UHGV virus genome: UHGV-2199876
Direction: 5' to 3' (one strand)
Origin: a virus
DNA: 29,731 nucleotides
The notes below the pieces were generated by a model that had not been told where the DNA came from, ran no database searches, and was given only the letters and a program-made list of their open reading frames with translations. How positions within the stretch are numbered: the first letter of the stretch is position 1; every line of letters starts with the position of its first letter. A program made the translations under genes and the position numbers. This document shows, piece by piece, positions 7,540 to 26,736 of the stretch.

Positions 7540-7875
7540 CAAAAGAACACAATCAAAGATCGTAAAACAACAATAATAATTCACACAAAATAAAGAACAC
7601 AAATACAGAAAACAACAACACAATAAAAACAAGAGAACACAAGCTATAAATATTACACCAATAGAGAACACTAATCAAGAACATATCAGCACATAATTCC
7701 CCATTATACGCGCGTATAATGGGGAATTATGTGCTGATTTTCAGAACAAAGTCAAGGAACAAATTTTAATGTTCCGATATTGTGTTTTTATTTATTATCC
7801 GTTATTGTGTTATGTTAATTTGTGACTAAGTTAACGCGTTATTAGTTATCTTATTCTCAAATTGTGTTACGATAA
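7540..7875. other. tos-like region: telomere-resolution palindrome flanked by inverted AACACAA / TTGTGTT repeats
   Basis: Left of the palindrome: AGAACACAA at 7544, 7594, 7634, with 7665 and 7678 as variants. Right of it: ATTGTGTT at 7779, 7804, 7862. The two sets are in inverted orientation around 7685-7738. Confidence 0.7.
7685..7738. other. telRL-like telomere resolution site (54-bp perfect palindrome with a central CGCGCG)
   Basis: atcagcacataattccccattatacgcg | cgcgtataatggggaattatgtgctgat checked base by base: perfect dyad over 54 bp. Closely resembles the N15 telRL/telO palindrome as I remember it (TATCAGCACACAATTGCCCATTATACGCGCGTATAATGG...). Sits just upstream of telN. Confidence 0.85.
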
Positions 7876-7902
7876 TCCGAGCGGATAATCAGGAGAGGAA
7901 AG

Positions 7903-9816
7903 ATGAGCAAAGTAAAAATCGGTGAATTAATAAACTCACTTGTTAGCGATGTTGAGTCAATAGATAACTCTGACCGTCCTCAAGGGGAGAAAACAAAAAA
8001 AATAAAGGCTGTTGCATTAAAATTTAAAAATGCATTATTTAATGACAAGCGAAAGTTTAGGGGTAAAGGATTAGAAAAAAGAATTACAGCCAACACATTC
8101 AATGCCTATATGAGCAGGGCCAGAAAACGGTTTGATGATAAACTTCATCATAGCTTTGAAAAAAATATACATCGCCTATCTGAAAAGTATCCTTTATATA
8201 ATGAGGAGCTATTATCATGGCTTTCTCTACCTGCTGCCGATATTCGCCAGAGAATGTCAGCTTTACAGGCAAAATTAAAATTAATTCTCCCTCTATCAGA
8301 AGATTTATCTAATATCAGAATTGGCGATAACAAAAATCATAATAAGTTATTAAAATTATCAAATAAATATAAAGAGTGGCAATTCGCCATTTCTGATTTA
8401 ACTAGCGATAACTGGAAAGATAAGCGCGATTATTTATATAAATTACTACAGCAAGGATCTGCCTTACTTGAGGAGTTGAATCAGCTAAAAGTTAACCATG
8501 AGATTCTCTATCATCTTCAACTAAGCCCTGCCGAACGCGCATCTATCCAGCAACGATGGGCGGACGTTCTGCACAATAAGAAACGTAACGTGGTGGTCAT
8601 TGATTACCCCAAATATATGCAAGCTATTTACGATATTATAAATAGCCCTGCTACATTAAATAATCTAAACACTCGTTCAGGTATGGCTCCTTTGGCATTT
8701 GCACTTGCTGCATTGTCAGGAAGACGAATGATTGAGATTATGTATCAAGGTACATTTACTGTTTCTGGTAAGTATACCGTTGATTTTTTAGGCCAAGCAA
8801 AAAAAAGAACTTCTGATGATATAACCAGAAAAATATATACATTATGCGAAGCAAAAACATTTGTTTATTTAATAAATGTACTTCGCTCATGCCCAGCAGC
8901 ATCTGATTTTGATGATGTCGTTAAAGGTTATGGAGATAACGACACACGCTCTGAAAACGGACGGATTAATGCCATATTAGCAAAGGCTTTTAACCCGTGG
9001 GTTAAATCATTTTTCAAAGATGACCGCCGTGTTTATAAAGATAGTCGTGCTATTTATGCCCGTATTGCGTATGAAATGTTTTTCCGCGTAGATCCTCGTT
9101 GGAAAAACGTAGATGAGGATGTTTTCTTTATGGAAATTTTAGGCCATGACGATGAAAACACTCAATTACACTATAAGCAATTCAAGCTGGCCAACTTCTC
9201 AAAGACATGGAGGCCAAATACTGGAAACGAAAATACCAGGCTGGAAGCATTGCAGCAGCTTGATGACGAAATGCCAGGATTCGCCAGAGGAGATGCCGGA
9301 GTTCGTCTGCATAACACAGTTAAGCAGCTGGTAGAGCAGGACCCCTCTATAAAAATCACGAACAGCACTCTAAGAGCATTCAAATTTAGCCCTACAATGA
9401 TTAGTCGATACCTAGAATTTGCTGCTGATGCTCTGGGGCAATTTGTTGGCGAAAATGGACAATGGCAGCTGAAAATAGATTCTCCAGAAATCGTTATGCC
9501 TGACGAAGAAGAGCTGGAAGCAATACCTGAACAGACGGATGAATTATCAGAGGATGACGATCTGGATGACGACGAAATTGAGATAGAGATAGAGGAAGAG
9601 GAAGAGGAAGAGGAAGAGGAAGAGAGCGTAGAAGAACAGCAACCGCCCGCGCCTTCTTCACCTGTATCTAAGCCGGTATTTAAGCCTGTGAGAAATATTG
9701 GTGATGGATCATACGTTGTTGAATTTCATTATAATGGCCAGAATTATGCTTGGTCCGGCAGTGCAAACAGCCCTATATCAGCAATGCAGTTAGCATGGCT
9801 GACATATTTCGGATAA
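7903..9816 (+). CDS. telN: Protelomerase (telomere resolvase) TelN
   Basis: 637-aa ORF closely matching N15 TelN as I remember it (MSKVKIGELIN..., RITANTFNAYMSRARKRFDDKLHHSF, VVVIDYP, GRINAILAKAFNPWVKSFF). Acidic C-terminal tract. SD GGAGAGG upstream. Confidence 0.93.
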   Translation: MSKVKIGELINSLVSDVESIDNSDRPQGEKTKKIKAVALKFKNALFNDKRKFRGKGLEKRITANTFNAYMSRARKRFDDKLHHSFEKNIHRLSEKYPLYNEELLSWLSLPAADIRQRMSALQAKLKLILPLSEDLSNIRIGDNKNHNKLLKLSNKYKEWQFAISDLTSDNWKDKRDYLYKLLQQGSALLEELNQLKVNHEILYHLQLSPAERASIQQRWADVLHNKKRNVVVIDYPKYMQAIYDIINSPATLNNLNTRSGMAPLAFALAALSGRRMIEIMYQGTFTVSGKYTVDFLGQAKKRTSDDITRKIYTLCEAKTFVYLINVLRSCPAASDFDDVVKGYGDNDTRSENGRINAILAKAFNPWVKSFFKDDRRVYKDSRAIYARIAYEMFFRVDPRWKNVDEDVFFMEILGHDDENTQLHYKQFKLANFSKTWRPNTGNENTRLEALQQLDDEMPGFARGDAGVRLHNTVKQLVEQDPSIKITNSTLRAFKFSPTMISRYLEFAADALGQFVGENGQWQLKIDSPEIVMPDEEELEAIPEQTDELSEDDDLDDDEIEIEIEEEEEEEEEEESVEEQQPPAPSSPVSKPVFKPVRNIGDGSYVVEFHYNGQNYAWSGSANSPISAMQLAWLTYFG

Positions 9817-9829
9817 AGCATACGGTAAA

Positions 9830-9856
9830 GGCACCGAATTATCGGTGCCTTGTTGT
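9830..9856. terminator. Bidirectional terminator hairpin between telN and convergent minus-strand genes
   Basis: GGCACCGA-atta-TCGGTGCC perfect 8-bp stem followed by TTGTTGTGT. Confidence 0.6.
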
Positions 9857-9861
9857 GTGGT

Positions 9862-10026
9862 CTACCTCGCCTGCCCCTTTTCGTCCTCATCCAACTTTCT
9901 GATAGCCGTAGAATCAATACCCGCCGCCATACACACATCAGATGCAACAAACCACGGTTCGCCGTTGATCATCACTACACGAACCTGATGCTCTTCCTGA
10001 AAGGAAAAGACTGCTAACGCGCTCAT
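9862..10026 (-). CDS. Truncated Bro-N / antirepressor N-terminal-domain protein (54 aa; below the ORF-track length cutoff)
   Basis: Hand translation gives MSALAVFSFQEEHQVRVVMINGEPWFVASDVCMAAGIDSTAIRKLDEDEKGQAR, which fits the Bro-N/Ant N-terminal signature (F.F....R....GEPWFVA.DV......D....LD.DEK). Its ATG overlaps the stop of the upstream ORF (ATGA) with a GGAGG SD. Confidence 0.55.
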   Translation of the reverse strand: MSALAVFSFQEEHQVRVVMINGEPWFVASDVCMAAGIDSTAIRKLDEDEKGQAR

Positions 10027-10256
10027 TCAGCCTCCTTATCGCGCAGCAAGTGCGACGAGAGAGACGCAGAATATCCCTGTGCTTCATGCGTTAACTCACA
10101 CGCAATCTGCAGAAGTTTTCCAGCCTCTGAGAGGTAAATCGACGCCTCACAACTGGAGACTGTCCGATGGGCTGATGATACGAGCGCATAGACCTGAGCC
10201 AGACGTTCATCCAACGATTCCAGCAGGCCAACAGTGTTCATTTTTACCTGATTCAT
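10023..10256 (-). CDS. Small protein translationally coupled to the Bro-N ORF (candidate icd-like leader gene)
   Basis: 77-aa ORF with a GAGGTGG SD 4 nt upstream. Its stop overlaps the start of the Bro-N ORF, the same coupling seen for icd-ant in P1 immI. The icd-like label is by arrangement only. Confidence 0.4.
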   Translation of the reverse strand: MNQVKMNTVGLLESLDERLAQVYALVSSAHRTVSSCEASIYLSEAGKLLQIACELTHEAQGYSASLSSHLLRDKEAE

Positions 10257-10423
10257 GCAGCCACCTCGCGCACCGGAATACGGGCAGACAATACCAGGAC
10301 AAACCGGCTGGCGAACTGGCGACGAGCTTCCCGTTCAGATGACGCGATAGTGGAAAGATGATGAATGTGGGACTTTTTGTCTGTGCGAACGACTGCCGCA
10401 AATTTGAATTTGAACATGGTATG

Positions 10424-10640
10424 CACTCCGTTTTATTGGTCGTGCTACCACCAGAGTTGCGAATCTCTTTATTGGTGGTAGCCCAGGCGGGGTTCGCAAT
10501 ACCGGTAAACGAAGAAACCGGCCCGACCGAAGTCAGCCCCACCTGAGCCACCATAATTCGGATATGCGCAGGTCTATACACACAAAAAAACACGCTGGCG
10601 CGTGTTGTGCGCTTCGTTTTGCCAGGATTGCGAAGTCCCG
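10424..10640 (-). promoter_or_regulatory. Candidate RNA regulatory leader (structured, with mutually complementary heptamers) upstream of the icd-like/Bro-N ORFs
   Basis: About 530 bp with no credible ORF. Perfect 10-bp stem GCTACCACCA...TGGTGGTAGC (10444-10482) with TTGCGAA in its loop; the complementary TTCGCAA at 10495-10501; a second TTGCGAA at 10629-10635. Confidence 0.3.
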
Positions 10641-10797
10641 ACTGCGGGATTTACCGCAGCGAGGTGACTTTACCTCCAAAACGACGCACACGTCAATAAT
10701 TTGCAAAGACATTTTACCCCGTGACCAGTCACGGGGACAGGTGTTTTTATAGTTTGCTTGAACGAGTGATCAGAAGTTGATCGTTAATCAAAGGCCA

Positions 10798-11109
10798 TTA
10801 CGGATTAAGAGAGTGGAAATACCTAACTAACTTACCGGCATCATCACATTTTTCTTTATCTTCTTCCTTAACATAGCCGCGACAGAAGGCTGAATAAAAT
10901 TTCGCATTTTCAGAAGCAAAAGCAGCCGTCGAAAGGAGCAGTTCTTTGCATGATTCTTTTGATGCAGCATCGGGATTATTTTTACATGCAAGCTCCGCTG
11001 ATGAGTTAATAACAGAAATGCTATCTTCCTGGGCATAAACCGCAGCAGAAAAGGCAAAACATAAAACCAAAATAAAACTCTTCACTTTATCTCCTGTAAC
11101 AGTTATCAC
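10798..11109 (-). CDS. Small secreted cysteine-containing protein (103 aa, signal peptide)
   Basis: N-terminal hydrophobic signal (FILVLCFAFSAAVYAQ) and at least 4 Cys in the mature part. SD GGAG upstream. AT-rich relative to its neighbours. Confidence 0.5.
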   Translation of the reverse strand: MITVTGDKVKSFILVLCFAFSAAVYAQEDSISVINSSAELACKNNPDAASKESCKELLLSTAAFASENAKFYSAFCRGYVKEEDKEKCDDAGKLVRYFHSLNP

Positions 11110-11112
11110 AAC

Positions 11113-11520
11113 TCAATCAACTTTTTTAGCATCAGCCATACGCTTCAACCAGTAATCAACAATCGGCTGCTCATCCACAGAATGTTTACCAGGTATAACT
11201 CGCCAGCTATCTTGCGAAAATCTGCCGTACTTACGCGGGAATAGGCCTTTCTTTATCTCCCGCCATGTACTAGGAAAACCATCCACAAAAGTACCAATTA
11301 ACAGGAGAGGGACAAAAATCAGAGCTACAAACCATCGTGCAAGAAAGTGTTCAACAACAACATTTTCACCGTTGTAGTAATACGCATACGCATCCAATAT
11401 GCGAATTTTCCTTACCTTAAAAATAGCCTTATGCTGAGAACGACTTAACTTGATACGAATGTATCCCTTATCCAAAGGGGATTCGTATTTGTATGATTGA
11501 AAAGCCATTTTTAACCCCAC
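11113..11520 (-). CDS. Hypothetical membrane protein (135 aa, one central TM segment)
   Basis: ORF with the hydrophobic segment WFVALIFVPLLLIGTFV. Translationally coupled to its neighbours. Confidence 0.5.
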   Translation of the reverse strand: MGLKMAFQSYKYESPLDKGYIRIKLSRSQHKAIFKVRKIRILDAYAYYYNGENVVVEHFLARWFVALIFVPLLLIGTFVDGFPSTWREIKKGLFPRKYGRFSQDSWRVIPGKHSVDEQPIVDYWLKRMADAKKVD

Positions 11521-11837
11521 TCACCATCAGCAAACAAAGCGTTATACTCTGACAATGGTAGACGGTTGCCCTCGATGTAGAGATTCAGTTCATACTTCGT
11601 CTCCGGGTTTTCCTTGTCGGCTCGTTCCCAACGCTCAGCAGCCTTACGCGCCAATAATTCCACTGCTTTCAGGTAATCCTCCGTACGGAACCAGCCAAAG
11701 ATAAGGCCACGATCTGTTACAGCCCAGGCGACCTTTTTTTCTTCCTCCTGGATAGCCTTAATGCGTCGATCGCATTCATCCCGGCAGAACTGCAGCTGAC
11801 GGTAATCAAGTTTGTCCAAAAATGCAGTAGTAGACAT
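11511..11837 (-). CDS. Hypothetical protein (108 aa)
   Basis: ORF with a GGGGAG SD upstream. Sits in the repA-distal operon. No recognised motif. Confidence 0.5.
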   Translation of the reverse strand: MSTTAFLDKLDYRQLQFCRDECDRRIKAIQEEEKKVAWAVTDRGLIFGWFRTEDYLKAVELLARKAAERWERADKENPETKYELNLYIEGNRLPLSEYNALFADGEWG

Positions 11838-11841
11838 ATTT

Positions 11842-12033
11842 TTACTCCCCGTTCACCGAAAAATCACGATAGAAGCGTTTCCACATACGATAAGTCTGCG
11901 CGAGTTGTTCACCACGAAACATCGCCTTCCTGGCCTTCATGTTTTCCTTGTGAGACTTTCGATCTATGAACCAAAACCATTGCTGGAACACACAAAGCAA
12001 GAGACACAAAGATAATATCCACTGATTACCCAT
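11842..12033 (-). CDS. Small membrane protein (63 aa) translationally coupled to the repA stop
   Basis: The ATG at 12033-12031 overlaps the repA TAA (ATGGGTAA). Sequence MGNQWILSLCLLLCVFQQWFWF... has one TM segment. The ORF track's longer 102-aa version runs back into repA. Confidence 0.35.
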   Translation of the reverse strand: MGNQWILSLCLLLCVFQQWFWFIDRKSHKENMKARKAMFRGEQLAQTYRMWKRFYRDFSVNGE

Positions 12034-15000
12034 AGAAAGCGCCCTGCTCTTCGTAGCTGCATGAGCTATTCCCGGTAATGTATTCTCGTAACCGCCGCAA
12101 TTCATTGCTGGACAAGTGATCCATGAACTCTGTGAGATACAGAGATGCAAACGTCATAGCTATGCTGGCTGATGACCATGATGACATAGTGGCCAGCTCC
12201 TCACCGGAAAGCGCACTCATCGCCCAGGACTCAGGAACAGCCACCGGCAATACGGCCAAAGCCTCAGAAATTACTGAATGAGGGGCGTTTTGAACCTGCT
12301 CGTTTGTGGATCGCGTTTTATCATCCATATATATATTGAGATCCAAATCGCGATCCATTTCGATGGCTGTCTTCTCGGCTTTACGCGTTTTTAGGGTTAG
12401 GCCATCTTTCTGACGCTGAACAAGAATATCCAGCATAAATGCCGCTGATTCAGGCTCAACAAAACGCAAGGTTGGACGCTTATCGCCGTCTCTGCCGCGA
12501 CGTTTACCTGTTTTAAGGCCAAGAGAGTCGCAAATGTTTTTAAACAACGCTTCCGGCACTTTAGGCTTCCCTTTTGGCGTCATAAAACCACCAATGTGCA
12601 GAACGTTATTCAACAGGTCACGGCGTTCGGCTGTCATGAGGTTATCTCGAGCGAATTTGAGACGCTCCTGAGTCGCCTCGCCGGTCATAGTCTCAGGGTT
12701 GATACCGCAGTCGATAAAGTACTGCCGGAGAGTTGCTGATTTAAGCGCATAGAAACCGCGCGCCCCGACTTCAACAGTAGGAGTAGCTTTTACCTTGTAG
12801 TCGATTATTCCAGGGAATTTAGTTTTAAAGACATCATCAGCCTGCTCGCGAGTCATCGCGGTCACTACAAAATATTGCCACTGTCCCGCCTGACGGTATG
12901 CGTAGGTAAAATTGATGGCTGCTTCTTCCCGGTCGTAACGACGAGCTGTTACCTCATCTAAAAGCATTGTTTCATAGCGGCGAACTTTGTCTCGAGCACC
13001 ATCGAAATAGAATTTCAGCGTGCCTTCTTCAACCGGTAGTTTCAGTTCGTTCTCAATATCCCAGCGGACAAGTTTTGCTTGTTCTTCAAGCGTCAGCGCG
13101 CGTTTTTTTAGCAGTTCTTCACGCTCTGATTCTTGTGGAGTTTCTGTATTGAGATGCAGATCCAGTGTCTGTTCCCACACAATATCCCGCGCTTCTTTAC
13201 GCAGATCTTTACCGATATCATTCGCAGCATAATCGGTGGCCAGCGGCGATACCTTATAACCGTCGCTGTGCATGATGCAGATCATGTTGCTGGCGTAGTC
13301 GTTACGCGCAGACGCTTCAATTGCGGCTGCTTTAATTTTCATCCTGGTAAAGTCGGTATTGGCCACCCCCATTGATATACGGTCGCCATCGAAAACGACA
13401 TCCGTCAGTTCACCGTTCATGCCTGCGGTAGCAAGCAATGCCTGGGCGAATGCTCGTTCTATTTTTTGCGGGTCAGTTTCACGTTTTGCGCGAGCTTTAT
13501 CAAAGCCGATAATAAATTCTTTTGCTGTACGGTCGCGGCGTAGCATTTGCACTGCGTCGCTGGGTACAACTTCACCACAGAACATGCCGAAATGACGGTC
13601 AAAATGTTTTTGCTCAATCGACACACCGGATGAAATAGACGGGCTATAAATCAGGCCGTCGTATTTTTTGACCATCTTTTTCGGTTGATTGGTAAATGCT
13701 TCAACTTCTGGCTCTGGTTTGTTTTTCTGGTTTACACACAGAAATTTCTTACCAGGAAAATGCATTCTCAGGGTGGCTGTCACATCTTCTGCAAAGGTGG
13801 AGCTGTCGGTGGCCAACATGATTTTTTCGCCATCCGATACAGCTTTCACCACCTCGGTCATAATGCGATCTTTTTCTGTATAAAAAACCCGGATTGGCTC
13901 ACCTGTTTCGCGGTTGCGAACATCAACAGGTAATTCAATTACGTGGATCTGCAGCCATGCCGGTAAACCTAGTTCTTCACGGCGTTTCATAGCCAGTTCA
14001 GCCAGGTCAACCAGCAGATCGTTCGCATCAGCATCCACCATTATTGGGTGTTGTTCCGTTCTGGCCAGCGCGTCGATTAACGTATTGAATACAGCCACCG
14101 GGTTTTCCATAGCCCGACCGGAAAGAACGGCACGTAGCCCTTGCGTGGCCTCGTCAAAGCCAAAATAGTCGTGCTGGCGCATCAACGGTTGCCAGCAGTT
14201 TTTAACAATCGAGTTTATGCAGATGGTCAGTTTACTGGCGTATGGAGCCATTTCCTGATAGCCAGGGTCCTGATAGTGCAGGATATCGGCTTTTACACCT
14301 TTTCCTTCTGTCATCATTTCCCACAGGCCACCAATAAGGGAAACACGGTGAGCAACAGAGATACCACGTTCTGAGCTATGCATTAAAGGTCGTAACAATC
14401 CAGTAGATTTGCCGGAACCCATACCAGCACGAACGATGACTATCCCCTGTAGTGATTGCACATACTTCAGGACGTCATCGGTCATTACCGAAGTTTCAAA
14501 ACGCTTATAGGTGATATGTTGAGGACGTTTATTGGGATCAGTTATGCGTTCGCTGAATGAGCGCGGAGCCTGGGCAATACGGCACTTTTTATTCAGGCGA
14601 CGGGCAATGTGGTCTTTTACCGTAGCGCGATAGATATTTTCCAGCCCCATTTCACGCAGAACGATGCAGAACATGTTAAATAAGTCTGACGGACTGTTAG
14701 GAACCGGACAGGTTAGCATGCCAATATCCACCGCTCTCAGCAGCTCTTTGGCAAAAGTACGACGGTTATCCCGCTTAATTGTCTTCAGGCGGTTGAGCGT
14801 CAGAGATAGCAAATCAGTGCCGGTTTTCAGGCGGTTTGCAGTTGCAAACAGTTGACGTGCTGTTTCACGAAGTCCACGCAGTTTGTGCAGGTCGTTGAAG
14901 TCACTGCACTCCATTTGCGGATCGTCTTCAAAAGTTGGATAGACGCAGCGGACATCGTTGAATTTCGATAAGATTTCATAGCCAGTCCGCAGGCCGGTAT

Positions 15001-16021
15001 TCCCTTTTCCTTCTGTGGCTGATTTCCGGTCATTATCCAGTGCGCAGGTGATTTTTGCCGCCGGGTACATGTTTACCAGTTGTTCCACAACATGAACCAT
15101 GTTATTAGCGGATACAGCGACAACCACAGCGTCAAAGCGTTTATCTTTTTTCGTGGCAAGCCAGATGGATGCACCAGTAGCAAAACCTTCTGTAACAGCG
15201 ATGTTTTGCGCCCCTTTTAGCTCACCGATAACAAAGCAGGCACCGACGAAATCGCCGCTGGTTACGGCGCTGGTCTGGTATTTTCCACCTTGTTTGTCGA
15301 TTCGCTGCCAACCCACAATACGACCATCGTAACGACCGTCCAGGTGAGCCAGAGGGATAGCCATATACGTGGTTGGCCCCCTGCTCCATTTTGCGCTGTC
15401 GTGACTGGTCACGCGACGCACATCACACGAATTAAAAACGTCACGAATACCTTTTTTAATCGCATATGGCCATGAGCCGTCTTCTGCAGGAGCATGTTCC
15501 CACGCGCTGTGGAATGCCAGCCATCCCAGCAAACGTTCATGGTCCATTTGGTTGTTTTTCAGGTCATTAATTCGTTTTTGTTCTTCACGGCGACGACGTG
15601 CTTCGGCCTGACGTTCTATTCTTGCCCGTTCTTCTTCCGGTTGTGCGACCACGGTCGCATTATTCCGTTGTTGCTCACGGCGATATTCAGAAAACAGGAA
15701 GGAGAAACCGCTCCATGAGCCAGCATCGCTGCCTTTATGGACGAAGTTAATGAACGGGTAATCAATCCCTTTGCTGTGTTCCAGCCGGGAGTAAATTTCT
15801 ACGCGTCCTTTGAGGCTCTTTTCGAGAGCTTCTGGAGATGTTTTATTGTATGAAGAGTAACGCTCAACACCCCCGCGAGGGTTGAGTTGGATGTTGTCGG
15901 AACAGGCAGACCAGTTGATACCAGCCATCTGTGCCAGCTCGGTTAGTTCATCCCGTGCTGCTTCAATTAGCGAGAACGGATCGCTGCCAAAGCGATCCGC
16001 ATAGAAATCGTTTAATGTCAT
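12026..16021 (-). CDS. repA: Replication protein RepA (multidomain primase-helicase, N15 RepA / P4 alpha-like)
   Basis: 1331-aa ORF with Walker A (VRAGMGSGKST) in the central helicase region and a primase-like N-terminal part. Size and position match N15 repA. Confidence 0.9.
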   Translation of the reverse strand: MTLNDFYADRFGSDPFSLIEAARDELTELAQMAGINWSACSDNIQLNPRGGVERYSSYNKTSPEALEKSLKGRVEIYSRLEHSKGIDYPFINFVHKGSDAGSWSGFSFLFSEYRREQQRNNATVVAQPEEERARIERQAEARRRREEQKRINDLKNNQMDHERLLGWLAFHSAWEHAPAEDGSWPYAIKKGIRDVFNSCDVRRVTSHDSAKWSRGPTTYMAIPLAHLDGRYDGRIVGWQRIDKQGGKYQTSAVTSGDFVGACFVIGELKGAQNIAVTEGFATGASIWLATKKDKRFDAVVVAVSANNMVHVVEQLVNMYPAAKITCALDNDRKSATEGKGNTGLRTGYEILSKFNDVRCVYPTFEDDPQMECSDFNDLHKLRGLRETARQLFATANRLKTGTDLLSLTLNRLKTIKRDNRRTFAKELLRAVDIGMLTCPVPNSPSDLFNMFCIVLREMGLENIYRATVKDHIARRLNKKCRIAQAPRSFSERITDPNKRPQHITYKRFETSVMTDDVLKYVQSLQGIVIVRAGMGSGKSTGLLRPLMHSSERGISVAHRVSLIGGLWEMMTEGKGVKADILHYQDPGYQEMAPYASKLTICINSIVKNCWQPLMRQHDYFGFDEATQGLRAVLSGRAMENPVAVFNTLIDALARTEQHPIMVDADANDLLVDLAELAMKRREELGLPAWLQIHVIELPVDVRNRETGEPIRVFYTEKDRIMTEVVKAVSDGEKIMLATDSSTFAEDVTATLRMHFPGKKFLCVNQKNKPEPEVEAFTNQPKKMVKKYDGLIYSPSISSGVSIEQKHFDRHFGMFCGEVVPSDAVQMLRRDRTAKEFIIGFDKARAKRETDPQKIERAFAQALLATAGMNGELTDVVFDGDRISMGVANTDFTRMKIKAAAIEASARNDYASNMICIMHSDGYKVSPLATDYAANDIGKDLRKEARDIVWEQTLDLHLNTETPQESEREELLKKRALTLEEQAKLVRWDIENELKLPVEEGTLKFYFDGARDKVRRYETMLLDEVTARRYDREEAAINFTYAYRQAGQWQYFVVTAMTREQADDVFKTKFPGIIDYKVKATPTVEVGARGFYALKSATLRQYFIDCGINPETMTGEATQERLKFARDNLMTAERRDLLNNVLHIGGFMTPKGKPKVPEALFKNICDSLGLKTGKRRGRDGDKRPTLRFVEPESAAFMLDILVQRQKDGLTLKTRKAEKTAIEMDRDLDLNIYMDDKTRSTNEQVQNAPHSVISEALAVLPVAVPESWAMSALSGEELATMSSWSSASIAMTFASLYLTEFMDHLSSNELRRLREYITGNSSCSYEEQGAFYG
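15644..15659. other. sopC-like centromere site (TGCGACC-AC-GGTCGCA) inside repA
   Basis: 16-bp match to the inverted repeat shared by the four other sites. Same 7-2-7 architecture as F sopC (TGGGACC-AC-GGTCCCA). Confidence 0.55.
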
Positions 16022-16266: not shown

Positions 16267-16863
16267 TCATCTACCCTCAACCATGAATGATTTGATCGTT
16301 CCGACTATTTGGTGAACAAATTCAAGATCGCTTTTCCTGAAGATGGCGCGTTGTGAATTTGTTCCGTCCAGATAGTAATTTTCATCATCAAAACGGGCCA
16401 GGCGCTGGATGGTGATATTTCCTGCAGTATCACGAACCAGAACATCCTCGCCGGGAACCAGTTCCAGCGCAGAATCGACCAGGAGAAAATCGCCTGGCTG
16501 ATAGTTTCCCTGCGCCAGATTGCTGATAGTTAACGCATAAACAGTATTGCGCTGGCTGATGAATGGCAGGAATCGCTCAGTATTTGGAACCTGTCCTGGC
16601 TTCCACTCTTCATCAGGTCCACTTTCAGTTGTGCCAATAACAGGAATGCGATCAGGGTCATATTCTGTCCCATACAGCACCCAATGCACTGGCTTGCGTA
16701 AGCATTTAGCCAGGGCAATACCTATCTCCAGTGACGGCATTACGTCGCCACGTTCTAAGTTTTGGACGCCTGCAATAGAGATATCGACAGCCTCAGCAAC
16801 TTCTCGCAACGTCAGCTTCATCTCTAAACGGCGTGCTTTCAGTCGTTCGCCTCGTGTTTTCAT
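16267..16863 (-). CDS. cB: Prophage repressor CB (cI-like: N-terminal HTH plus C-terminal S24/LexA-like domain)
   Basis: 198-aa ORF with an XRE-type HTH (LTLREVAEAVDISIAGVQNLERG) and a C-terminal region with the character of lambda cI / LexA S24 domains. Divergent from the cro-like gene. Confidence 0.85.
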   Translation of the reverse strand: MKTRGERLKARRLEMKLTLREVAEAVDISIAGVQNLERGDVMPSLEIGIALAKCLRKPVHWVLYGTEYDPDRIPVIGTTESGPDEEWKPGQVPNTERFLPFISQRNTVYALTISNLAQGNYQPGDFLLVDSALELVPGEDVLVRDTAGNITIQRLARFDDENYYLDGTNSQRAIFRKSDLEFVHQIVGTIKSFMVEGR

Positions 16864-16886
16864 AGCTTAATCATAAATGATCTTCT

Positions 16887-16927
16887 TATAGCTGGCTATA
16901 AAATTTATTTATTATAGCTGGCTTTAA
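16887..16927. promoter_or_regulatory. Immunity operators: two copies of TTATAGC-N2-GCTATAA between cB and cro
   Basis: TTATAGCTGGCTATAA at 16887-16902 and the imperfect TTATAGCTGGCTTTAA at 16912-16927. A TATAAT hexamer lies at 16943-16948. Confidence 0.5.
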
Positions 16928-17176
16928 ATGCGATTTATTGCTTATAATAACCGCATGAAACCAGAAGAACTTATTCGCCACTTTGGCAGTGTAGAAAAAG
17001 CAGCGGCTGGGGTAGGTGTAACACCCGGTGCTGTTTACCAATGGTTAACCGCTGGAGAGATTCCTTCATTGCGGCAAAGTGATATTGAAGTTCGTACTGC
17101 TTACAAGCTGAAGAGTGACTTTACAACTCGGCGGGTAAAGCAGTCGATTAAGGAGAGCCGTAAGCGTGGAGCTTGA
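16928..17176 (+). CDS. cro: Cro-like small DNA-binding regulator
   Basis: 82-aa ORF (73 aa if it starts at ATG 16955) divergent from cB. Contains a GVTPGAVYQWL HTH-like segment. Confidence 0.6.
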   Translation: MRFIAYNNRMKPEELIRHFGSVEKAAAGVGVTPGAVYQWLTAGEIPSLRQSDIEVRTAYKLKSDFTTRRVKQSIKESRKRGA

Positions 17177-17876
17177 GTATATACGCAGCTGCGTCTCCAC
17201 GGCATTGGCTGATATTCATTATCGCCAGCGTGGCATCCTAGAGGTCCAGCTTGAGCAGATGCGTCTAGGCAGATCAGGACGCTTTAACAATAAACCAGTC
17301 CGGTCAATCAGTGTAGGTGATGATAACTCATACGAAGTGTCTGTTCCTGCTGAGCCGGTTAGATTCCACCAGGGCAAAACATTTAAACAATCATCAATGT
17401 TGCTCACTGATATTGATTTTCAGAGCGCCAGCTGGCGCAGGGCTATTGGTCAGTTGAATAACGAGGAATCAGCCTGGCTTTATTATTGCTACGGATGCAA
17501 GCCTAACTACAACAATGATGTGATTGTTTGTCAGTGGTTATGGCTTGATTTTCTGGTTGCGCATTCGGGTGGCGGGTTTAAAAAAATGAAGGCCTCCACG
17601 AAAAAAGCCATGAGAAAATTGATTTATTACGCGGCACAGCAGGTTAAGTCAGAACTTACGTGTGCTGAGGCAGTTGATGATAGAGAACAGGACAGGCAGC
17701 TGAGTTTTCTACTGAATATATCTATTGATAGCTGGAGACAAGATTATAAAGAACGCTGGCTTTTAATTAAGTCGCGATGTCTGAGCTTAAATCGAACTGC
17801 ATTATTAAATGCGGCGGAGAAGCGCAGTGAAATCATCAAACGCCATCGGGCAGGAAGTGCCATTCTGCCTTTGTAA
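17166..17876 (+). CDS. Hypothetical protein at the position of the late antiterminator (Q-like?)
   Basis: 236-aa ORF immediately after cro with a GTG start. Cys cluster YYCYGCKPNYNNDVIVCQW. Assignment is by position only. Confidence 0.3.
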   Translation: MELEYIRSCVSTALADIHYRQRGILEVQLEQMRLGRSGRFNNKPVRSISVGDDNSYEVSVPAEPVRFHQGKTFKQSSMLLTDIDFQSASWRRAIGQLNNEESAWLYYCYGCKPNYNNDVIVCQWLWLDFLVAHSGGGFKKMKASTKKAMRKLIYYAAQQVKSELTCAEAVDDREQDRQLSFLLNISIDSWRQDYKERWLLIKSRCLSLNRTALLNAAEKRSEIIKRHRAGSAILPL

Positions 17877-20643: not shown

Positions 20644-20661
20644 CTGGTCACGGAGGGATAA

Positions 20662-20904: not shown

Positions 20905-20932
20905 AAATTGACCGTAAAGTTTGAGTTTTATC

Positions 20933-20948
20933 CTGTAATTTTATACAG
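20933..20948. promoter_or_regulatory. LexA (SOS) box CTGT-N8-ACAG
   Basis: cCTGTaattttatACAGta fits the CTGT-(AT)4-ACAG consensus. Lies about 40 bp upstream of the 20987 ORF and overlaps likely promoter hexamers. Confidence 0.55.
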
Positions 20949-20986
20949 TATAAAAAACCTTTTTTAGTTAAATGGTATGAGATTTA

Positions 20987-21190
20987 ATGTCTGAAGCAGC
21001 CGTATCAACTCTTGAACAACTCGATTCAAATTTGAGAGATATTGACGCCGTTCTGGATCTGGTTAGCGTCACCCTGGCTTCTCCAGAAGCCAGCCTACAT
21101 ATTGGTGAGGTTTCACGACTCATCAACATGTCGCGAGAGATTGCCCAGCATTGTCAGAAAACTATCGCTGTTGAGCGTTCACATCATTGA
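20987..21190 (+). CDS. SOS-controlled small protein (candidate AntC-like antirepressor)
   Basis: 67-aa ORF directly downstream of the LexA box. N15 is reported to have a LexA-regulated small antirepressor, antC. Confidence 0.45.
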   Translation: MSEAAVSTLEQLDSNLRDIDAVLDLVSVTLASPEASLHIGEVSRLINMSREIAQHCQKTIAVERSHH

Positions 21191-21232
21191 TGCACACCCC
21201 GCCCTTCTGGACGGGGTAGTAAAAGAGTCTAA

Positions 21233-21520
21233 TTAATAAACAGCGCGAATATCGATGGTTGCGCCGCAGGCATGAGCATATTTAGCCAAAGTTTTCATAC
21301 TTGCCCCTAAAGGATTGCTTTCCAGGCGGCTGATGGCTGACGGTCGCAACCCCATTCGTTCAGCCAGAGCTGATTTCGTTAAACCTGCTCTTTCCCTCAT
21401 TTCGTATAACATTTCGACCATCTCCAGCTCTTTATCGGCCTCTTCATATCCTTTGATGGCTTCTGGAGTGTTGAGAAGTTTTTCTTTTACTTCGTTAAAC
21501 GGGATGCCTTTCGCTTTCAT
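21233..21520 (-). CDS. HTH (XRE-family) antitoxin
   Basis: 95-aa ORF with an HTH (LTKSALAERMGLRPSAISRLE). Its start overlaps the stop of the upstream toxin-like ORF (HigB-HigA-type order). Confidence 0.7.
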   Translation of the reverse strand: MKAKGIPFNEVKEKLLNTPEAIKGYEEADKELEMVEMLYEMRERAGLTKSALAERMGLRPSAISRLESNPLGASMKTLAKYAHACGATIDIRAVY

Positions 21521-21831
21521 CAGTTCATCTCCTTCAGGCGAGTTCTGGCGATTTCGATAGCCTTCACCGGTGTTTTCTGTGTCTTTTTTACAAATGCATG
21601 CAATAGATAAATTTCGTTACCAGTCGCGTAGGCGTACAGCGTTCTTGCGATGTTTTTATCCCCTACTCGTAGTTCAAAAAGCCCTCCACCTATTACACGG
21701 CTATGGGGCATCTTCAGTTTGTTGCCTTCCTTCTCCAGTCGCTCAATTAATCTGGTCATGCGACCTCGCAAATCATCTGGTAGTTCAAGCAGTTCATCCA
21801 GTGCTGCAGGGTGGGTTATCACGTTAAACAT
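21520..21831 (-). CDS. Gp49-like (HigB/RelE-superfamily) toxin
   Basis: 103 aa with the 'phage-derived Gp49-like' character (KMPHSRVIGGGLFELRVGD...ARTLYAY...IYLLHAFVKKTQKTP). The family is named after N15 gene 49. Confidence 0.7.
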   Translation of the reverse strand: MFNVITHPAALDELLELPDDLRGRMTRLIERLEKEGNKLKMPHSRVIGGGLFELRVGDKNIARTLYAYATGNEIYLLHAFVKKTQKTPVKAIEIARTRLKEMN

Positions 21832-21978
21832 ATTATAGCCTCCATAGCCATAAAATACACCAAAACAAGAAAAAAGCGCAAATTAAAAATTTCACTAAAA
21901 AGTGAAAAATAACACTGGATGTGTTCGTTTGGCAGAGTTACAGTTCGTGTCATTGAGGGGCAATAACCCACTAACTAT

Positions 21979-22218
21979 ATGAATTTGGAGGATATTATGA
22001 ATTATCAAGGTAACGAAAAAATGCGCGACGACGTTGCGGAGATAGCTAACGAACTGTATGAGTTGTGGCAGAAGGTTGAACGTTTCGAAAAGGAATATGG
22101 TTTCAACAGTACCAACCTGGCAGACCGACTGGCTGGTCGCTTAGTTGGGACTATGGGGCCAAAACTGGCTGAGTTGAACCGCTTTATGGCTGATGTTGAT
22201 TTCCAGTTTCAAGATTGA
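21979..22218 (+). CDS. Hypothetical protein (79 aa)
   Basis: ORF with a GGAGG SD. Confidence 0.45.
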   Translation: MNLEDIMNYQGNEKMRDDVAEIANELYELWQKVERFEKEYGFNSTNLADRLAGRLVGTMGPKLAELNRFMADVDFQFQD

Positions 22219-22231
22219 TTAGAGAGGCGTT

Positions 22232-22459
22232 ATGAATATTAATGAAATTCGTGGAAATATGACTGAAGCGGCCCTGAGTGTGGAATGTGTTATGCGTGGA
22301 TACCCACGCATTTCCCTGAAAGAGTTAAGCGAAGCCTGTTTTTTGAGTCAAGCTGCCGTTGAATTTATCATCGAACAGATGATCTGTTTTGGGGTTGCAA
22401 AGCGTAGCGGGTCTGGTCGATATTCTTTGACCGATGAATATAAGCAGGCAACTTTCTAA
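22232..22459 (+). CDS. Hypothetical protein (75 aa)
   Basis: ORF with a GAGAGG SD. Followed by a sopC-like site and a terminator. Confidence 0.45.
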   Translation: MNINEIRGNMTEAALSVECVMRGYPRISLKELSEACFLSQAAVEFIIEQMICFGVAKRSGSGRYSLTDEYKQATF

Positions 22460-22465
22460 AAACTG

Positions 22466-22481
22466 TGCGACCACGGTCGCA
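22466..22481. other. sopC-like centromere site (TGCGACC-AC-GGTCGCA)
   Basis: Inverted repeat immediately after the stop of the 22232 ORF. Confidence 0.6.
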
Positions 22482-22556
22482 CAGCACAAAAACGAAAAAG
22501 CTTGGCAAAATTACGGTTTTTAGTTATTGTTTTGTTAAGTTGGGTTTTTTGTACCC

Positions 22557-22582
22557 AACAGCCAACAAGCCGCCTTTATGGC
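22557..22582 (+). terminator. Rho-independent terminator candidate
   Basis: AGCCGCC-tttat-GGCGGTT followed by TTTTTTTG. Confidence 0.55.
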
Positions 22583-22681
22583 GGTTTTTTTGTGCCTGAA
22601 AAGTGGGCGCAGGACAAGTTGCAGCTTGTCCTGCGGTCAACCCATGCCAGAGCTATAGGCTGAACCTAAAGCCCACCCGCG

Positions 22682-23803
22682 ATGCGCATCGCCGGGTTAG
22701 CTTACCCAGGCAAAAAAATAATAGCTATGTTCAAAACCACTAATATTCATGGCGCGCAACTCGTTTGCGCAGATTCTCTGCAATTTATCAAAACCATCCC
22801 TGATAACTCGGTCAATTTGATTGCAACAGACCCACCATACTTCGGCGTAAAGGCTAACGCATGGGATAACCAGTGGGATAGCGATGCTGACTTTTTGGGG
22901 TGGATTGATGAATTTTTGGCAGAATTTTGGCGGATATTGGCCCCTAATGGCAGCCTGTATATGTTTACCGGCTCTCGCCTTGCGTCAAAAATTGAATTAT
23001 TAACTCGCGACCGTTTCAATGTTCTGAACCATATCATTTGGGCTAAACCCAGTGGTATGTGGCGCGGTTGTCATAAAGAAAGTTTAAGGGCTTATTTTCC
23101 TGCCACTGAAAGAATATTATTTGCAGAGCATTACGGCGCGTCAGGTTATGCTAAAGGTCAGTCAGGTTATGCTTCAAAATGTGCAGATTTAAGAAAAAAT
23201 ATTTTTTCTCCACTAATTGATGCTTTTTCGCTGGCTCGCCGTCAGTTAGATATATCAGCCGCAGACATTAATTCAGCAACAGGAAAGCAGATGTGTTCGC
23301 ACTGGTTTTCTTATTCGCAGTGGCGGCTTCCATCATTAAGTGATTTTAATAAACTATGCGAATTATTTCGCAGGAAGGCAGATTCACTCGGTGTCCCGTG
23401 TCCATATCCTTTTAATGTTGATTATTCAGAACATGAAAAGCGTTATAGCGATCTGAAATTGCGTTATGAGGAAGTAAAGAAGCAGTATGATGATTTGAAG
23501 GCTCAGTATGAAAATTTGCGCCGCCCATTTCATGTTACTGCTGATGTACCTTATACCGATGTATGGGAGTTTCCTCCTGTGCAATATTATCCTGGCAAGC
23601 ACCCATGTGAAAAACCTGCAGCGATGATGGAACATATTATAAAAAGTAGTTCCCGCCCCGGAGATATCGTTGCCGATTTCTTTATGGGATCAGGCTCTAC
23701 TATTAAAGCCGCGCTGAAGTTAGGTCGTCAGGCAATCGGTATTGAGATTGAGGGTGAACGTTATCTTCAGACAGTTGATGAAGTGAAAAAGTTATTTGAG
23801 TAA
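22682..23803 (+). CDS. Orphan DNA methyltransferase (N6-adenine / N4-cytosine type, DPPY motif)
   Basis: Motif IV IATDPPYFG near the N-terminus and motif I (FxGxG) DIVADFFMGSGSTIKAA near the C-terminus. No adjacent restriction endonuclease. Start may be ATG 22727. Confidence 0.8.
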   Translation: MRIAGLAYPGKKIIAMFKTTNIHGAQLVCADSLQFIKTIPDNSVNLIATDPPYFGVKANAWDNQWDSDADFLGWIDEFLAEFWRILAPNGSLYMFTGSRLASKIELLTRDRFNVLNHIIWAKPSGMWRGCHKESLRAYFPATERILFAEHYGASGYAKGQSGYASKCADLRKNIFSPLIDAFSLARRQLDISAADINSATGKQMCSHWFSYSQWRLPSLSDFNKLCELFRRKADSLGVPCPYPFNVDYSEHEKRYSDLKLRYEEVKKQYDDLKAQYENLRRPFHVTADVPYTDVWEFPPVQYYPGKHPCEKPAAMMEHIIKSSSRPGDIVADFFMGSGSTIKAALKLGRQAIGIEIEGERYLQTVDEVKKLFE

Positions 23804-23898
23804 CTGAAGAATATATTCCCCTGCCGTTTTTGATGGGGTTATTTCTCGCCGTATAGTTTCCAAGCCGAAACCTCAGCAACTATTGCGAGGTAAGAGAT

Positions 23899-24171
23899 AT
23901 GAAGATGGATGAACGATACAGCAGCGCATCTTATGGTAGTGCTGGTCTTACTGCGTTCTTTGCCAGCCTGTCATTGCAGGATTGGGGCTTCATTATCGGT
24001 GTCGCGTTCAGCATTATCCTCGGTGTACTTACATACCGGCTCAATAAACGCGAGCAGATGAAGCGCACGAAGATATTGCAGGACATATTGGATAAAACTG
24101 ATGCCAATAATATTTCCGCCACGGCGATGGTTATTGGTGAATTGGGAAAGAGAGCACCGAAGGAAATATGA
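23899..24171 (+). CDS. Class II holin (pinholin-like, two TM segments, dual-start MKM)
   Basis: 90 aa with two TM segments ([11 protein letters not shown] and [18 protein letters not shown]), like S21-type pinholins. Met1-Lys2-Met3 dual start. Overlaps the endolysin start. Confidence 0.7.
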
Positions 24172-24668
24172 TGCAGTCATCATTACGCAAAGCTGTCGCA
24201 ACTGCTATTGGTGGCGGGGCTATTGCCATAGCATCTGTGCTCATCTCTGGTCCGAGCGGCAACGATGGTCTGGAAGGTGTGAGACATAACCCCTACAAAG
24301 ACATCGTTGGTGTATGGACTGTATGTTACGGGCATACAGGAAAAGACATTATGCTCGGTAAAACGTATACCGAAGCAGAATGCAAAGCTCTCCTGAATAA
24401 AGACCTTGCTACTGTCGCCAGACAAATTAACCCGTACATCAAAGTCGATATACCGGAAACAACGCGTGGTGCTCTTTACTCGTTCGTTTACAACGTGGGT
24501 GCAGGCAATTTCAGAACATCGACACTTCTTCGCAAAATCAACCAGGGCGATATCAAAGGTGCATGTGATCAACTACGTCGCTGGACATATGCTGGCGGTA
24601 AGCAATGGAAAGGGCTGATGACTCGCCGTGAGATTGAGCGTGAAGTCTGTTTGTGGGGGCAGCAATGA
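24168..24668 (+). CDS. SAR endolysin (T4-lysozyme-like muramidase with N-terminal signal-anchor-release domain)
   Basis: N-terminal Gly/Ala-rich weak TM segment ([18 protein letters not shown]), then an E-x8-D-x5-T catalytic triad pattern ([16 protein letters not shown]). Confidence 0.85.
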
Positions 24669-25132
24669 GCAGAGTAACCGCAATTATCTCCGCACTGGTT
24701 ATCTGCATCATCGTCTGCCTGTCGTGGGCTGTTAATCATTACCGTGATAACGCCATCGCCTACAAAGAACAGCGTGATAAAAAAGTCAGTGAGCTGAAGC
24801 AGGCGACCGCCACCATCGCTGACATGCAGCAGCGTCAGCGTGATGTTGCTGCGCTCGATGCAAAATACACGAAGGAGTTGGCTGATGCGAAAGCTGAAAA
24901 TGATGCTCTTCGGCGCAAGCTTGATAATGGTGGTCGGGTGCTCGTCAAAGGAAAATGCTCTGTGCCATCCTCAGCCGAAACCTCCAGCGCCTCCGGCATG
25001 GGCAATGATGCCACCGTCGAACTCTCTCCAGTTGCTGGACGAAACGTTCTCGGTATCCGGGACGGAATCATCAGAGACCAGACAGCACTGAGAACGCTTC
25101 AGGAATACATCAAGACGCAATGCCCGAATTAA
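24653..25132 (+). CDS. Rz: Rz i-spanin
   Basis: The N-terminus [31 protein letters not shown] matches lambda Rz as I remember it. Coiled-coil periplasmic domain. Confidence 0.85.
24885..25091 (+). CDS. Rz1: Rz1 o-spanin (lipoprotein embedded in +1 frame of Rz)
   Basis: [21 protein letters not shown]... has a lipobox (VVGC), then a proline-rich stretch [19 protein letters not shown] upstream. Confidence 0.75.
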
Positions 25133-25173
25133 TCCCTCTGTATCAAAAACGAACTCAATTTGTTGGATAGTGA

Positions 25174-25485
25174 ATGAAAATTTATATTGCCGGGCCAATG
25201 ACTGGATATGAGAACTTTAATCGTGACGCCTTTAATAAAGAGGCAGATCGTTTGTCACGACATGGTCACTCTGTCTTGAATCCAGCCACTTTGCCTAATG
25301 GTCTGACACAACGTGAATACATGGATATTTGCTTTGCAATGCTTCGTTGTGCTGATGCTATTTTGATGCTTCCTGGCTGGAAAGCGTCTGCTGGAGCAAC
25401 TGCTGAGTATCATTACGCATACAAGATGGAGATGCCGGTATTCACTACGCTGAATTACCCGCCAGCTTGTTCCTCTGTAGCATAA
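25174..25485 (+). CDS. DUF4406-like / nucleoside 2-deoxyribosyltransferase-fold protein
   Basis: 103 aa starting MKIYIAGPMTG, with ...NPA... and ...LPGW... The family name is from memory of the motif only. Confidence 0.45.
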   Translation: MKIYIAGPMTGYENFNRDAFNKEADRLSRHGHSVLNPATLPNGLTQREYMDICFAMLRCADAILMLPGWKASAGATAEYHYAYKMEMPVFTTLNYPPACSSVA

Positions 25486-25505
25486 AAATCTCTTTGTTTC
25501 TCGTG

Positions 25506-25521
25506 TGCGACCGTGGTCGCA
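25506..25521. other. sopC-like centromere site (TGCGACC-GT-GGTCGCA)
   Basis: Inverted repeat 20 bp after the DUF4406-like stop and just before direct-repeat copy 1. Confidence 0.6.
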
Positions 25522-25532
25522 CATTAAATACC

Positions 25533-25700
25533 GCGCTGCATCGTCGCCGTATTTCCGCATTAACCATGACCGTAGCCCGACGGGGAACTCCTCTGCGCGA
25601 GTGTGCGGAAATAATCAAAAACGATGCACACCGGGTTTTTACCGCGCTAATGATTCGCGGGTTTGTCCCTCATGCTCGCCAGTCCTGTGCGAGGGTGGAA
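25533..25700 (+). repeat. Direct repeat, copy 1 (about 170 bp)
   Basis: About 90% identical to 26473-26645 (gcgctgcatcgtcgccgtatttccgcattaaccatgaccgtagcccgacgggg...). Confidence 0.8.
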
Positions 25701-25725
25701 GAAACAGGGCATGTATTCAGGAGCG

Positions 25726-25741
25726 TGCGACCGTGGTCGCA
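25726..25741. other. sopC-like centromere site (TGCGACC-GT-GGTCGCA)
   Basis: Inverted repeat about 25 bp upstream of the ATG of the 25765 ORF. Confidence 0.6.
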
Positions 25742-25764
25742 CGGTATCTTTGTCAGGAGGTTTT

Positions 25765-26362
25765 GATGAAAGAGTTGCAAAAAATTAATTCAATAATGGA
25801 AAGATTAAGTGCTCTTGAGCGTAAGCTGGACGATTGTGGAAAGCTGTGTGTTGAAAAGCAAAATGAGCTTTACCGGGAATTTTTTACAATCGTAAGTGAG
25901 CTGATGCCAATTGTTAATAACTGCCTGATGACATCCAGATTTTTTAATGTCGATGCTACTACATCCAGAAAATTTTCTGTGAAAATTCAAGAAAGAGTTT
26001 CTGGTAGTGTGACAAGAGAGATGGCTGAACAGTTGGTGGCAATGAGCAATAAAACAAAAAGAAAAAAGGCATTGCTTGTAACAGCAAATCAGCTTTCAGG
26101 GCGCGTTGACTTTCAGGTCAGACAGGGTGGGCGTGTACTGGTAAATGATGCGTTCGTTGGACGTAGCTTTAGTCCTTACTCGATAAAATATGATGTTGAT
26201 GCAGATGATCAGGATATCAGCATTTCCTGGAAATCTGAGACAGCAGGGATTGTATTAACAGCAGAGTTGTTGAGTGATGATAAAAATGATGTCCAGCATC
26301 ATTTGGACGAAAAGAATCATATTTCTGAAATTTGTATGAAGCCACGCAGCATCACTAATTAA
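25765..26362 (+). CDS. Hypothetical AT-rich moron protein (199 aa)
   Basis: ORF with a CAGGAGG SD at 25754-25760. Visibly more AT-rich than its surroundings. Bracketed by the two direct-repeat copies. The ORF-track N-terminal extension (from 25505) is not credible. Confidence 0.45.
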
Positions 26363-26472
26363 ATAGTCCATTACAAAAGCCATTCGCTACTGAGTGGCTT
26401 TGATAATGGCTTATACCCTGCACGGGATAACTTAACTGATATCCCTTTTAACGGATAAAGGTATTCAAGCCT

Positions 26473-26645
26473 GACACATCATGCGCTGCATCGTCGCCGT
26501 ATTTCCGCATTAACCATGACCGTAGCCCGACGGGGAATTCCTTCTGCGCGAGTGTGCGGAAATAATCAAAAACGATGCACACCGGGTTTTTACCGCGTTT
26601 ATGGTGCGCGGTTTTGTCCCTCATAGTCGCCCGTCCGGTGCGATG
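26473..26645 (+). repeat. Direct repeat, copy 2 (about 170 bp), immediately upstream of cos
   Basis: Paired with 25533-25700. Confidence 0.8.
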
Positions 26646-26724
26646 GTGGAAGAAGCTGGATATTAATGCAAGTGATAATTATTCTCACCTTTGCGGGTCC
26701 TTTCCGGCGATCCGGCAGGCTACG

Positions 26725-26736
26725 GGGCGGAAGGCG
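26725..26736. other. cosN candidate (12-nt cohesive-end segment GGGCGGAAGGCG)
   Basis: The flanking sequence tacg | 12-mer | CGCGGGTTTTCGCTATTTATGAAAATTTTCCGG aligns with the lambda left end as I remember it (GGGCGGCGACCT-CGCGGGTTTTCGC...). It lies 189 bp upstream of the nu1 ATG, as in lambda. Confidence 0.6.

Follow-up and report, generated by a model that had tools for sequence, protein, structure and literature searches.

N15 (NC_001901) is the prototype telomere phage-plasmid, and its architecture and the parts of its life cycle recur in the DNA described here, a slice of 29,731 nt (29.7 kb) from the virus genome UHGV-2199876, hereafter the window. In N15 virions the DNA has cos ends and an internal telRL, and after injection it closes through cos before the protelomerase TelN acts; the maps of phage and prophage differ by a circular permutation of about 50%, with cos internal in the prophage (PMC10612081). 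Replication yields telLL and telRR junctions that are resolved by TelN (PMC12624138), and in the account of Mardanov & Ravin 2009, as cited in PMC3905847, lytic growth converts linear N15 DNA back to a circular molecule. The window comes from a temperate N15-type telomere phage-plasmid, laid out as a circular map, in which an N15-like plasmid and immunity module is joined to a lambda-like head, tail and cos module. The sequence runs through both the telomere-resolution site telRL and the cos site, and we conclude that it most likely records the closure of a hairpin-ended linear phage-plasmid during assembly or deposition rather than a new topology.

Relation to N15, lambda and their mosaics

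The N15-type character of the element is evident from the joint presence of a protelomerase of the TelN/TelK family, a telRL with a telO core next to telN, and RepA together with SopAB. A mosaic lineage combining an N15-type plasmid with a lambda packaging and structural module is known from Escherichia coli and Shigella (bioRxiv 10.1101/2025.09.12.675607), and its members in the databases include PhiR46_1, YDC107_1 and numerous E. coli plasmid records. Across the phage, plasmid and E. coli complete-genome collections, the best matches to the window reached either 99.8% identity to a part of the query or 99.1% identity across 98% of it, while a search of species-representative genomes with the window gave no match. 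The nearest match was a MEGAHIT contig in ENA (ERZ27239410, k119_10640), which is 100% identical to window positions 4903-12816, the sopA-telRL-telN junction included (7.9 kb compared).

PhiR46_1 (PV340565.1) is 99.8% identical to window positions 7701-27500 and shares the order telN, repA, cI/cro/Q, lysis, cos, lambda-like Nu1 and A, tail and sopBA, as well as the 22-bp tel core and the cosN variant. It differs in having been deposited as a linear prophage with the 22-bp tel core at its start and at its end, so that the sopA-telRL-telN junction of the window is split across its ends, and in carrying about 821 bp more than the window between telN and Nu1. Further related E. coli phage-plasmids are YDC107_1, pEC21Z144-46K and p19KM1803_4.

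DNA identity between N15 itself and the window is only about 76%, over 19% of the query, and the packaging module of the window is that of lambda and not that of N15, as the terminase identities and the lambda-type cosB given below indicate. Conversely, lambda (NC_001416) shares the flanks of cosN, the R3, R2 and R1 elements and the placement of Nu1 and gpA immediately downstream, but it integrates, whereas the replicon of the window is a TelN/RepA/SopAB linear plasmid. The Klebsiella phage phiKO2 has a protelomerase, TelK, with which TelN of the window shares all four TelK domains; its host belongs to another genus, and its DNA similarity to the window is about 74% over a third of the query.

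The telomere and cohesive-end sites

The telomere, plasmid and packaging features of the window are the following:

5099..6088, minus strand: sopB/parB partition gene (Pfam SoPB_HTH, 1.6e-23; 73.7% identical to N15 SopB)
6085..7254, minus strand: sopA/parA partition ATPase gene (Pfam AAA_31 and CbiA; 93.3% identical to N15 SopA)
7545..7868, no strand: inverted GAACACWA / TTGTGTT arrays around telRL (from motif positions; putative function only)
7685..7738, no strand: telRL, a perfect 54-bp palindrome and protelomerase substrate, centred between 7711 and 7712
7701..7722, no strand: telO-type 22-bp core CCATTATACGCGCGTATAATGG, identical to the centre of N15 telRL
7903..9816, plus strand: telN protelomerase gene, intact, 637 amino acids (Pfam TelK_N, TelK_muzzle, ResT-TelK_cat and TelK_stirrup)
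12026..16021, minus strand: repA replication gene, 1331 amino acids (75.7% identical to N15 RepA over 1319 amino acids)
26695..26701, plus strand: GGGTCCT at the lambda cosQ position, 30 bp upstream of the nick, as in lambda
26725..26736, plus strand: cosN 12-nt cohesive-end region GGGCGGAAGGCG (aligned to bases 1-12 of lambda and N15)
26777..26893, plus strand: cosB, with the terminase small-subunit binding elements R3 (26777), R2 (26836) and R1 (26878), all exact lambda 16-mers
26914..27459, plus strand: Nu1 terminase small-subunit gene (Pfam Phage_Nu1, 1.7e-95)
27434..29359, plus strand: gpA terminase large-subunit gene (Pfam GpA_ATPase and GpA_nuclease)

The telRL palindrome is a 27+27 nt inverted repeat, 100% complementary and with zero spacer, and it is the longest perfect palindrome of the window, the second longest reaching only 18 bp. 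Compared with N15 telRL (NC_001901 24775-24830, annotated cut at 24802/3), it matches at 49 of 56 positions; the N15 site is an imperfect 56-bp palindrome, whereas that of the window is perfect over its 54 bp, and the core CCATTATACGCGCGTATAATGG falls in a stretch fully identical to N15. The same 22-mer is annotated in PhiR46_1 as both telL and telR. The telN gene starts 165 bp downstream of telRL, and its product aligns with the crystallised TelK (PDB 2V6E) at E=5e-295 over residues 1-536 with about 80% identity, retains the HYKQF tyrosine motif of TelK and is 76.9% identical to N15 TelN.

All four GAACACWA sites of the window and seven of its nine TTGTGTT sites cluster around telRL at 7545-7868. 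Of these seven, the four to the left of telRL are on the minus strand and the three to its right on the plus strand, a layout that inverted TTGTGT motifs also form around the N15 cut site. Over the whole window the counts of the two motifs are not above chance, and it is only their clustering and orientation at telRL that stand out. These arrays are probably either accessory TelN-binding (tos-like) sites or promoter elements of telN or sopA; accessory sites have been reported in telRL flanks (PMC12624138), and the arrays of the window fit that description.

A symmetric pair of positions just outside the 22-bp core, 7700 and 7723, is not constant across relatives. The window has C..G there, CP151021 and the two junctions of CP088430 have T..A, OY754439 has T..G and CP135212 has C..A. 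The coexistence of symmetric and mixed states fits independent left and right halves that recombine when telRL re-forms.

At the other site, cosQ, cosN and cosB lie in lambda order upstream of Nu1 and gpA, as in lambda-type packaging systems. Base 1 of lambda corresponds to window position 26725, and more than 10 lambda-like records deposited from the cohesive end are in register, their base 13 falling at 26737. The R3 and R2 elements stand at lambda offsets and R1 is 1 bp closer, and the GGGTCCT motif upstream is presumably cosQ, by comparison with lambda. Nu1 is 92.8% identical to its lambda counterpart and 54% to that of N15, and for gpA these values are 99.2% and 87%. The placement of cosN rests on homology, and virion ends at this position are accordingly a prediction.

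The 12-nt overhang itself is GGGCGGAAGGCG in the window, GGGCGGCGACCT in lambda and GGGCGGCGTCCG in N15; those of the window and N15 both begin GGGCGG and end CG. Five of the 12 overhang positions, 7-10 and 12, are not those of lambda (AAGG.G in the window against CGAC.T), and all five lie in the right half. Only PhiR46_1, YDC107_1 and PhiR70_1 share this overhang in the phage collection, and none of the records there that carry it starts at cos. Because these five changes coexist with a gpA 99.2% identical to lambda's and with exact cosQ, R3, R2 and R1 elements, they suggest that lambda terminase tolerates changes in the centre and right of the overhang, or else that the few differences in gpA matter.

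Just upstream of cos, two direct repeats of about 190 bp (25533-25719 and 26483-26670, plus strand, 87-98% identical) bracket an open reading frame (ORF) at 25766-26362. It encodes 198 amino acids, has no match in Pfam and is also common in chromosomal lambdoid prophages; together with the flanking repeats it resembles a moron cassette that is swapped when these repeats recombine. A second copy of cos at these repeats was considered and rejected, for the first of the two copies departs from the second before anything resembling cos is reached, so that there is one cos only.

Assemblies of relatives and the origin of the closed map

Both telRL and cos are internal to the window and lie 19.0 kb apart, and the same map, with the same 19-kb interval, is found in relatives of about 46 kb. 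The first-pass annotation had stated that the window is contiguous through the two sites and that both are intact and internal, and this is borne out by the perfect 54-bp palindrome and, on grounds of homology, by the cos subsites. To judge what such contiguity means, public assemblies of relatives were surveyed as a stand-in for the window's own reads. They fall into three classes, namely records of about 46 kb with both sites internal, fold-backs of 61-91 kb, and contigs that end at the palindrome.

Relatives with a contiguous sopA-telRL-telN order are 45-47 kb long, and all eight that were checked are flagged circular; one uninterrupted match covers telRL as well as cos in NZ_CP148365.1 and in NZ_OY757103.1. 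Among the 13 IMG/VR and metagenome contigs that carry a 34-bp core, nine terminate at the palindrome or 2-24 nt past it, one is a long fold-back and three have the sopA-telRL-telN layout of the window. PhiR46_1, deposited as the prophage, has cos internal at 19846, in line with the circular permutation of virion and prophage.

The fold-back class is represented by three records examined in detail. CP088430.1 (91,525 bp, flagged circular) consists of the genome followed by its own reverse complement. A distance of 45,430 bp separates its two telO junctions, and it matches the stretch of the window from telN to gpA at 99.6% identity; its layout is the appearance of a denatured hairpin-ended duplex. 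CP019258.1 has the order sopA, palindrome, inverted sopA, and carries the exact 54-mer of the window. In CP126957.1 the order is inverted telN, palindrome, telN, which amounts to a 3,054-bp perfect palindrome; it encodes an identical TelN and is 100% identical to the window over 5.1 kb. The 54-mer of the window thus recurs exactly in relatives where either arm folds back. We infer that LT906558, CP014491, CP088738, CP088810 and CP088562 are fold-backs as well, since half of each matches and the match stops at the palindrome. Folding back at telN is also seen in short-read contigs of 56-60 kb, of which at least one is of human gut metagenome origin, which demonstrates that fold-back read-through does occur in short-read data.

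Other records break off at or near the same point. NZ_JBRAXZ010000005.1 begins exactly at the palindrome centre (window 7712), and pEC21Z151-46K and pEC21Z144-46K end and begin tens of bp short of the palindrome, yet are flagged circular. The start and end of NZ_CP101200.1 lie 31 and 47 bp from the palindrome centre, and pEC21Z151-46K, like NZ_CP101200.1, lacks window 7665-7742 (78 bp, including the whole of telRL). NZ_CP101226.1 starts at window 7755; this record and NZ_CP101200.1 are both flagged circular but look like mislabelled linear contigs. Since relatives up to 99.6-100% identical to the window fold back or end at the palindrome, the junction between 7711 and 7712 is a working hairpin telomere in this lineage. 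The claim of the first-pass annotation that a linear prophage would end at telRL is therefore upheld in location, although the true ends are telL and telR, the two halves of telRL. Its companion claim, that a virion genome would end at cosN, is consistent with the deposition of lambda-type genomes from the homologous cos position.

Two observations in these assemblies stand apart. NZ_CP165740.1 (about 99% identical, flagged linear, with arbitrary ends) lacks about 50 bp near its position 23575, corresponding to window 7688-7737 and hence to essentially the whole palindrome, between an intact sopA and an intact telN; the gap is either a collapse during assembly or polishing, or a real telRL deletion forcing circular replication. 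In addition, N15-like segments occur inside megabase-size records: a sopA arm with the palindrome is present at 15399-16337 of NZ_CP025707.1 (the YDC107 chromosome), near its start, and in other contigs phage sequence yields to chromosomal genes at or just past cos/Nu1. They probably arose by chimeric assembly across shared lambdoid stretches.

By analogy with N15, the cycle of the element would run as follows. The virion DNA would be a linear molecule whose 12-nt cohesive ends are generated by Nu1/gpA cutting at cosN, and the injected genome would close through cos. TelN would then make staggered cuts at the centre of telRL and seal the halves into the hairpins telL and telR, and the prophage would be a linear plasmid with the order telL-telN...repA...cos...head/tail...sopBA-telR, circularly permuted relative to the virion. 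Given that the prophage ends at the telomere and the virion at cos, a sequence that crosses both sites is neither a single packaged molecule nor a single prophage molecule, and because no single mature molecule holds both sites intact, we read it as an assembly or deposit closed into a circle. The layout of the window is a common closed representation of its lineage.

What the analysis establishes is the identity and integrity of both sites and of their enzymes, and how relatives behave in public assemblies; the route by which the window itself was closed is conjectural, and two may be considered. Firstly, prophage reads that span cos could have been merged with reads that span telRL, the latter derived from virions released by spontaneous induction or from lytic intermediates. 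Secondly, an assembler may have walked through a self-complementary palindrome node common to both hairpin ends, which share one node because reading through either hairpin restores the complete palindrome. When the k-mers of the window's own sequence were tested, hairpin read-through at k<=55 already held every k-mer of the sopA-telRL-telN junction, whereas from k=56 upwards junction-specific k-mers are required. The second route is thus feasible, as hairpin read-through can supply all junction k-mers at k<=55. The contig k119_10640, assembled at k=119 and crossing telRL, points to genuine junction-spanning reads in one sample or more, and virions would supply them.

Several considerations weigh against closure as the explanation. 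Plain unitigs normally stop at a branching palindrome node, so that the second route needs a scaffolding or graph-resolution step. The assembly history of the window is inferred from its relatives and not from its own reads, coverage or metadata. Furthermore, molecules holding both sites do exist transiently, as the cos-closed infecting genome, as lytic circular monomers and as concatemers (Mardanov & Ravin 2009, cited in PMC3905847), and a sample rich in circular monomers or concatemers would give the same sequence. Sequence alone does not tell the alternatives apart.

The strongest competitor to assembly or deposit closure is that true circular monomers or rolling-circle concatemers predominated in the sample, as in an induced culture or a fresh infection, and that the contig is the physical molecule. 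Such intermediates belong to the N15 cycle (PMC10612081), and the k=119 contig, identical to the window, crosses telRL at a k-mer length that needs junction-specific k-mers. Packaged virions, however, explain the junction reads equally well, since telRL is internal in virions and the reads therefore do not imply circles, and in ordinary lysogen cultures circular forms are short-lived and make up a minor fraction. A scan of the window for a long inverted repeat, a fold-back or terminal redundancy found none, and as the window falls short of a full genome unit and lacks terminal redundancy, nothing in it indicates a concatemer. We therefore regard a physical circle or concatemer as unlikely, though it is the alternative to be taken most seriously.

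Considerably less probable is a stable circular plasmid derivative in the source strain, with telomere resolution switched off, either through a silent TelN or through failure to cleave telRL. In N15-type plasmids repA alone suffices for circular replication, and a telN insertion mutant is presumed circular (PMC10612081); the loss of the palindrome in NZ_CP165740.1, unless an artefact, would mean that loss of resolution may occur. Yet telRL of the window is perfect and keeps the N15 telO core, TelN is full-length with its catalytic tyrosine motif, and the fold-back records that share its TelN and palindrome exactly are evidence of working resolution in the lineage. On a par with this, and likewise improbable to a high degree, is the reading that circular monomers with an intact telRL make up a substantial pool at steady state in the source cells, alongside the hairpin-linear form or in its place, despite intact TelN and telRL. 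Such a pool could arise by TelN-mediated telomere fusion during lysogeny or by TelN being held off; if real, it would mean that an N15-type plasmid is circular in nature or switches its topology.

That the two sites are chance resemblances or decayed remnants, as the departure of the overhang from lambda and the lack of a variant record beginning at the site might hint, can be set aside, being excluded for telRL, where a 54-bp perfect palindrome with the N15 telO core far exceeds the 18-bp runner-up and recurs at fold-backs in many independent assemblies, and being very unlikely for cos, where exact and properly spaced cosQ, R3, R2 and R1 adjoin terminase genes 93-99% identical to those of lambda.

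The first-pass annotation had offered a circular or concatemeric intermediate, a merged assembly or a circularised deposit as explanations. Its list covers the likeliest case, in keeping with the circular flag on all eight relatives checked, and omits two others, which are graph closure through the palindrome from hairpin-only DNA (at k<=55) and a resolution-defective circular derivative. Its logic is sound but restates textbook N15 biology, and what it describes is already known as a type of database artefact. Among the papers searched, none was found to say outright that circular mis-deposition of N15-like elements is routine. The lesson is practical rather than conceptual: a label such as "circular, ~46 kb" in these records is not to be read as physical topology, and no topology, size or copy number should be taken from them without reads. 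The problem records comprise those of about 46 kb flagged circular, the "circular" fold-backs of 61-91 kb that derive from a hairpin plasmid of about 46 kb, and "circular" records without the palindrome. They can mislead plasmid typing, estimates of size and copy number and surveys of phage-plasmids, and the fold-backs inflate sizes and gene counts.

Further gene modules of the window

The remainder of the window is occupied by tail, immunity, toxin-antitoxin and lysis genes:

329..928, plus strand: Lom-like outer-membrane protein gene, which ends the lambda-like tail module (homologues annotated Lom or Ail/Lom in PhiR46_1 and NZ_CP165740.1)
987..4720, plus strand: side tail-fibre genes at 987-3392, 3389-3670 and 3680-4720 (ORFs; annotation of near-identical records)
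16267..17876, both strands: immB-type switch (Pfam HTH_3 and Phage_antiter_Q; relatives' annotation)
16267-16863, minus strand: cB repressor, part of the immB-type switch
16928-17176, plus strand: cro (P22_Cro on the homologous gene)
17166-17876, plus strand: Q antiterminator, part of the immB-type switch
21233..21831, minus strand: RelE/ParE-type toxin (Gp49 family) and helix-turn-helix antitoxin (Pfam Gp49, 2.5e-29; a relative's annotation)
22682..25132, plus strand: DNA methyltransferase, holin, lysozyme and Rz lysis genes (ORFs; relatives' annotation and Pfam matches on their products)

Homologues of repA in RefSeq relatives are annotated "CyRepA1 family". Within the first side tail-fibre gene (987-3392), periodic repeats of 21 nt, or seven codons, run from 1471 to 1963 and form two blocks of 189 nt.

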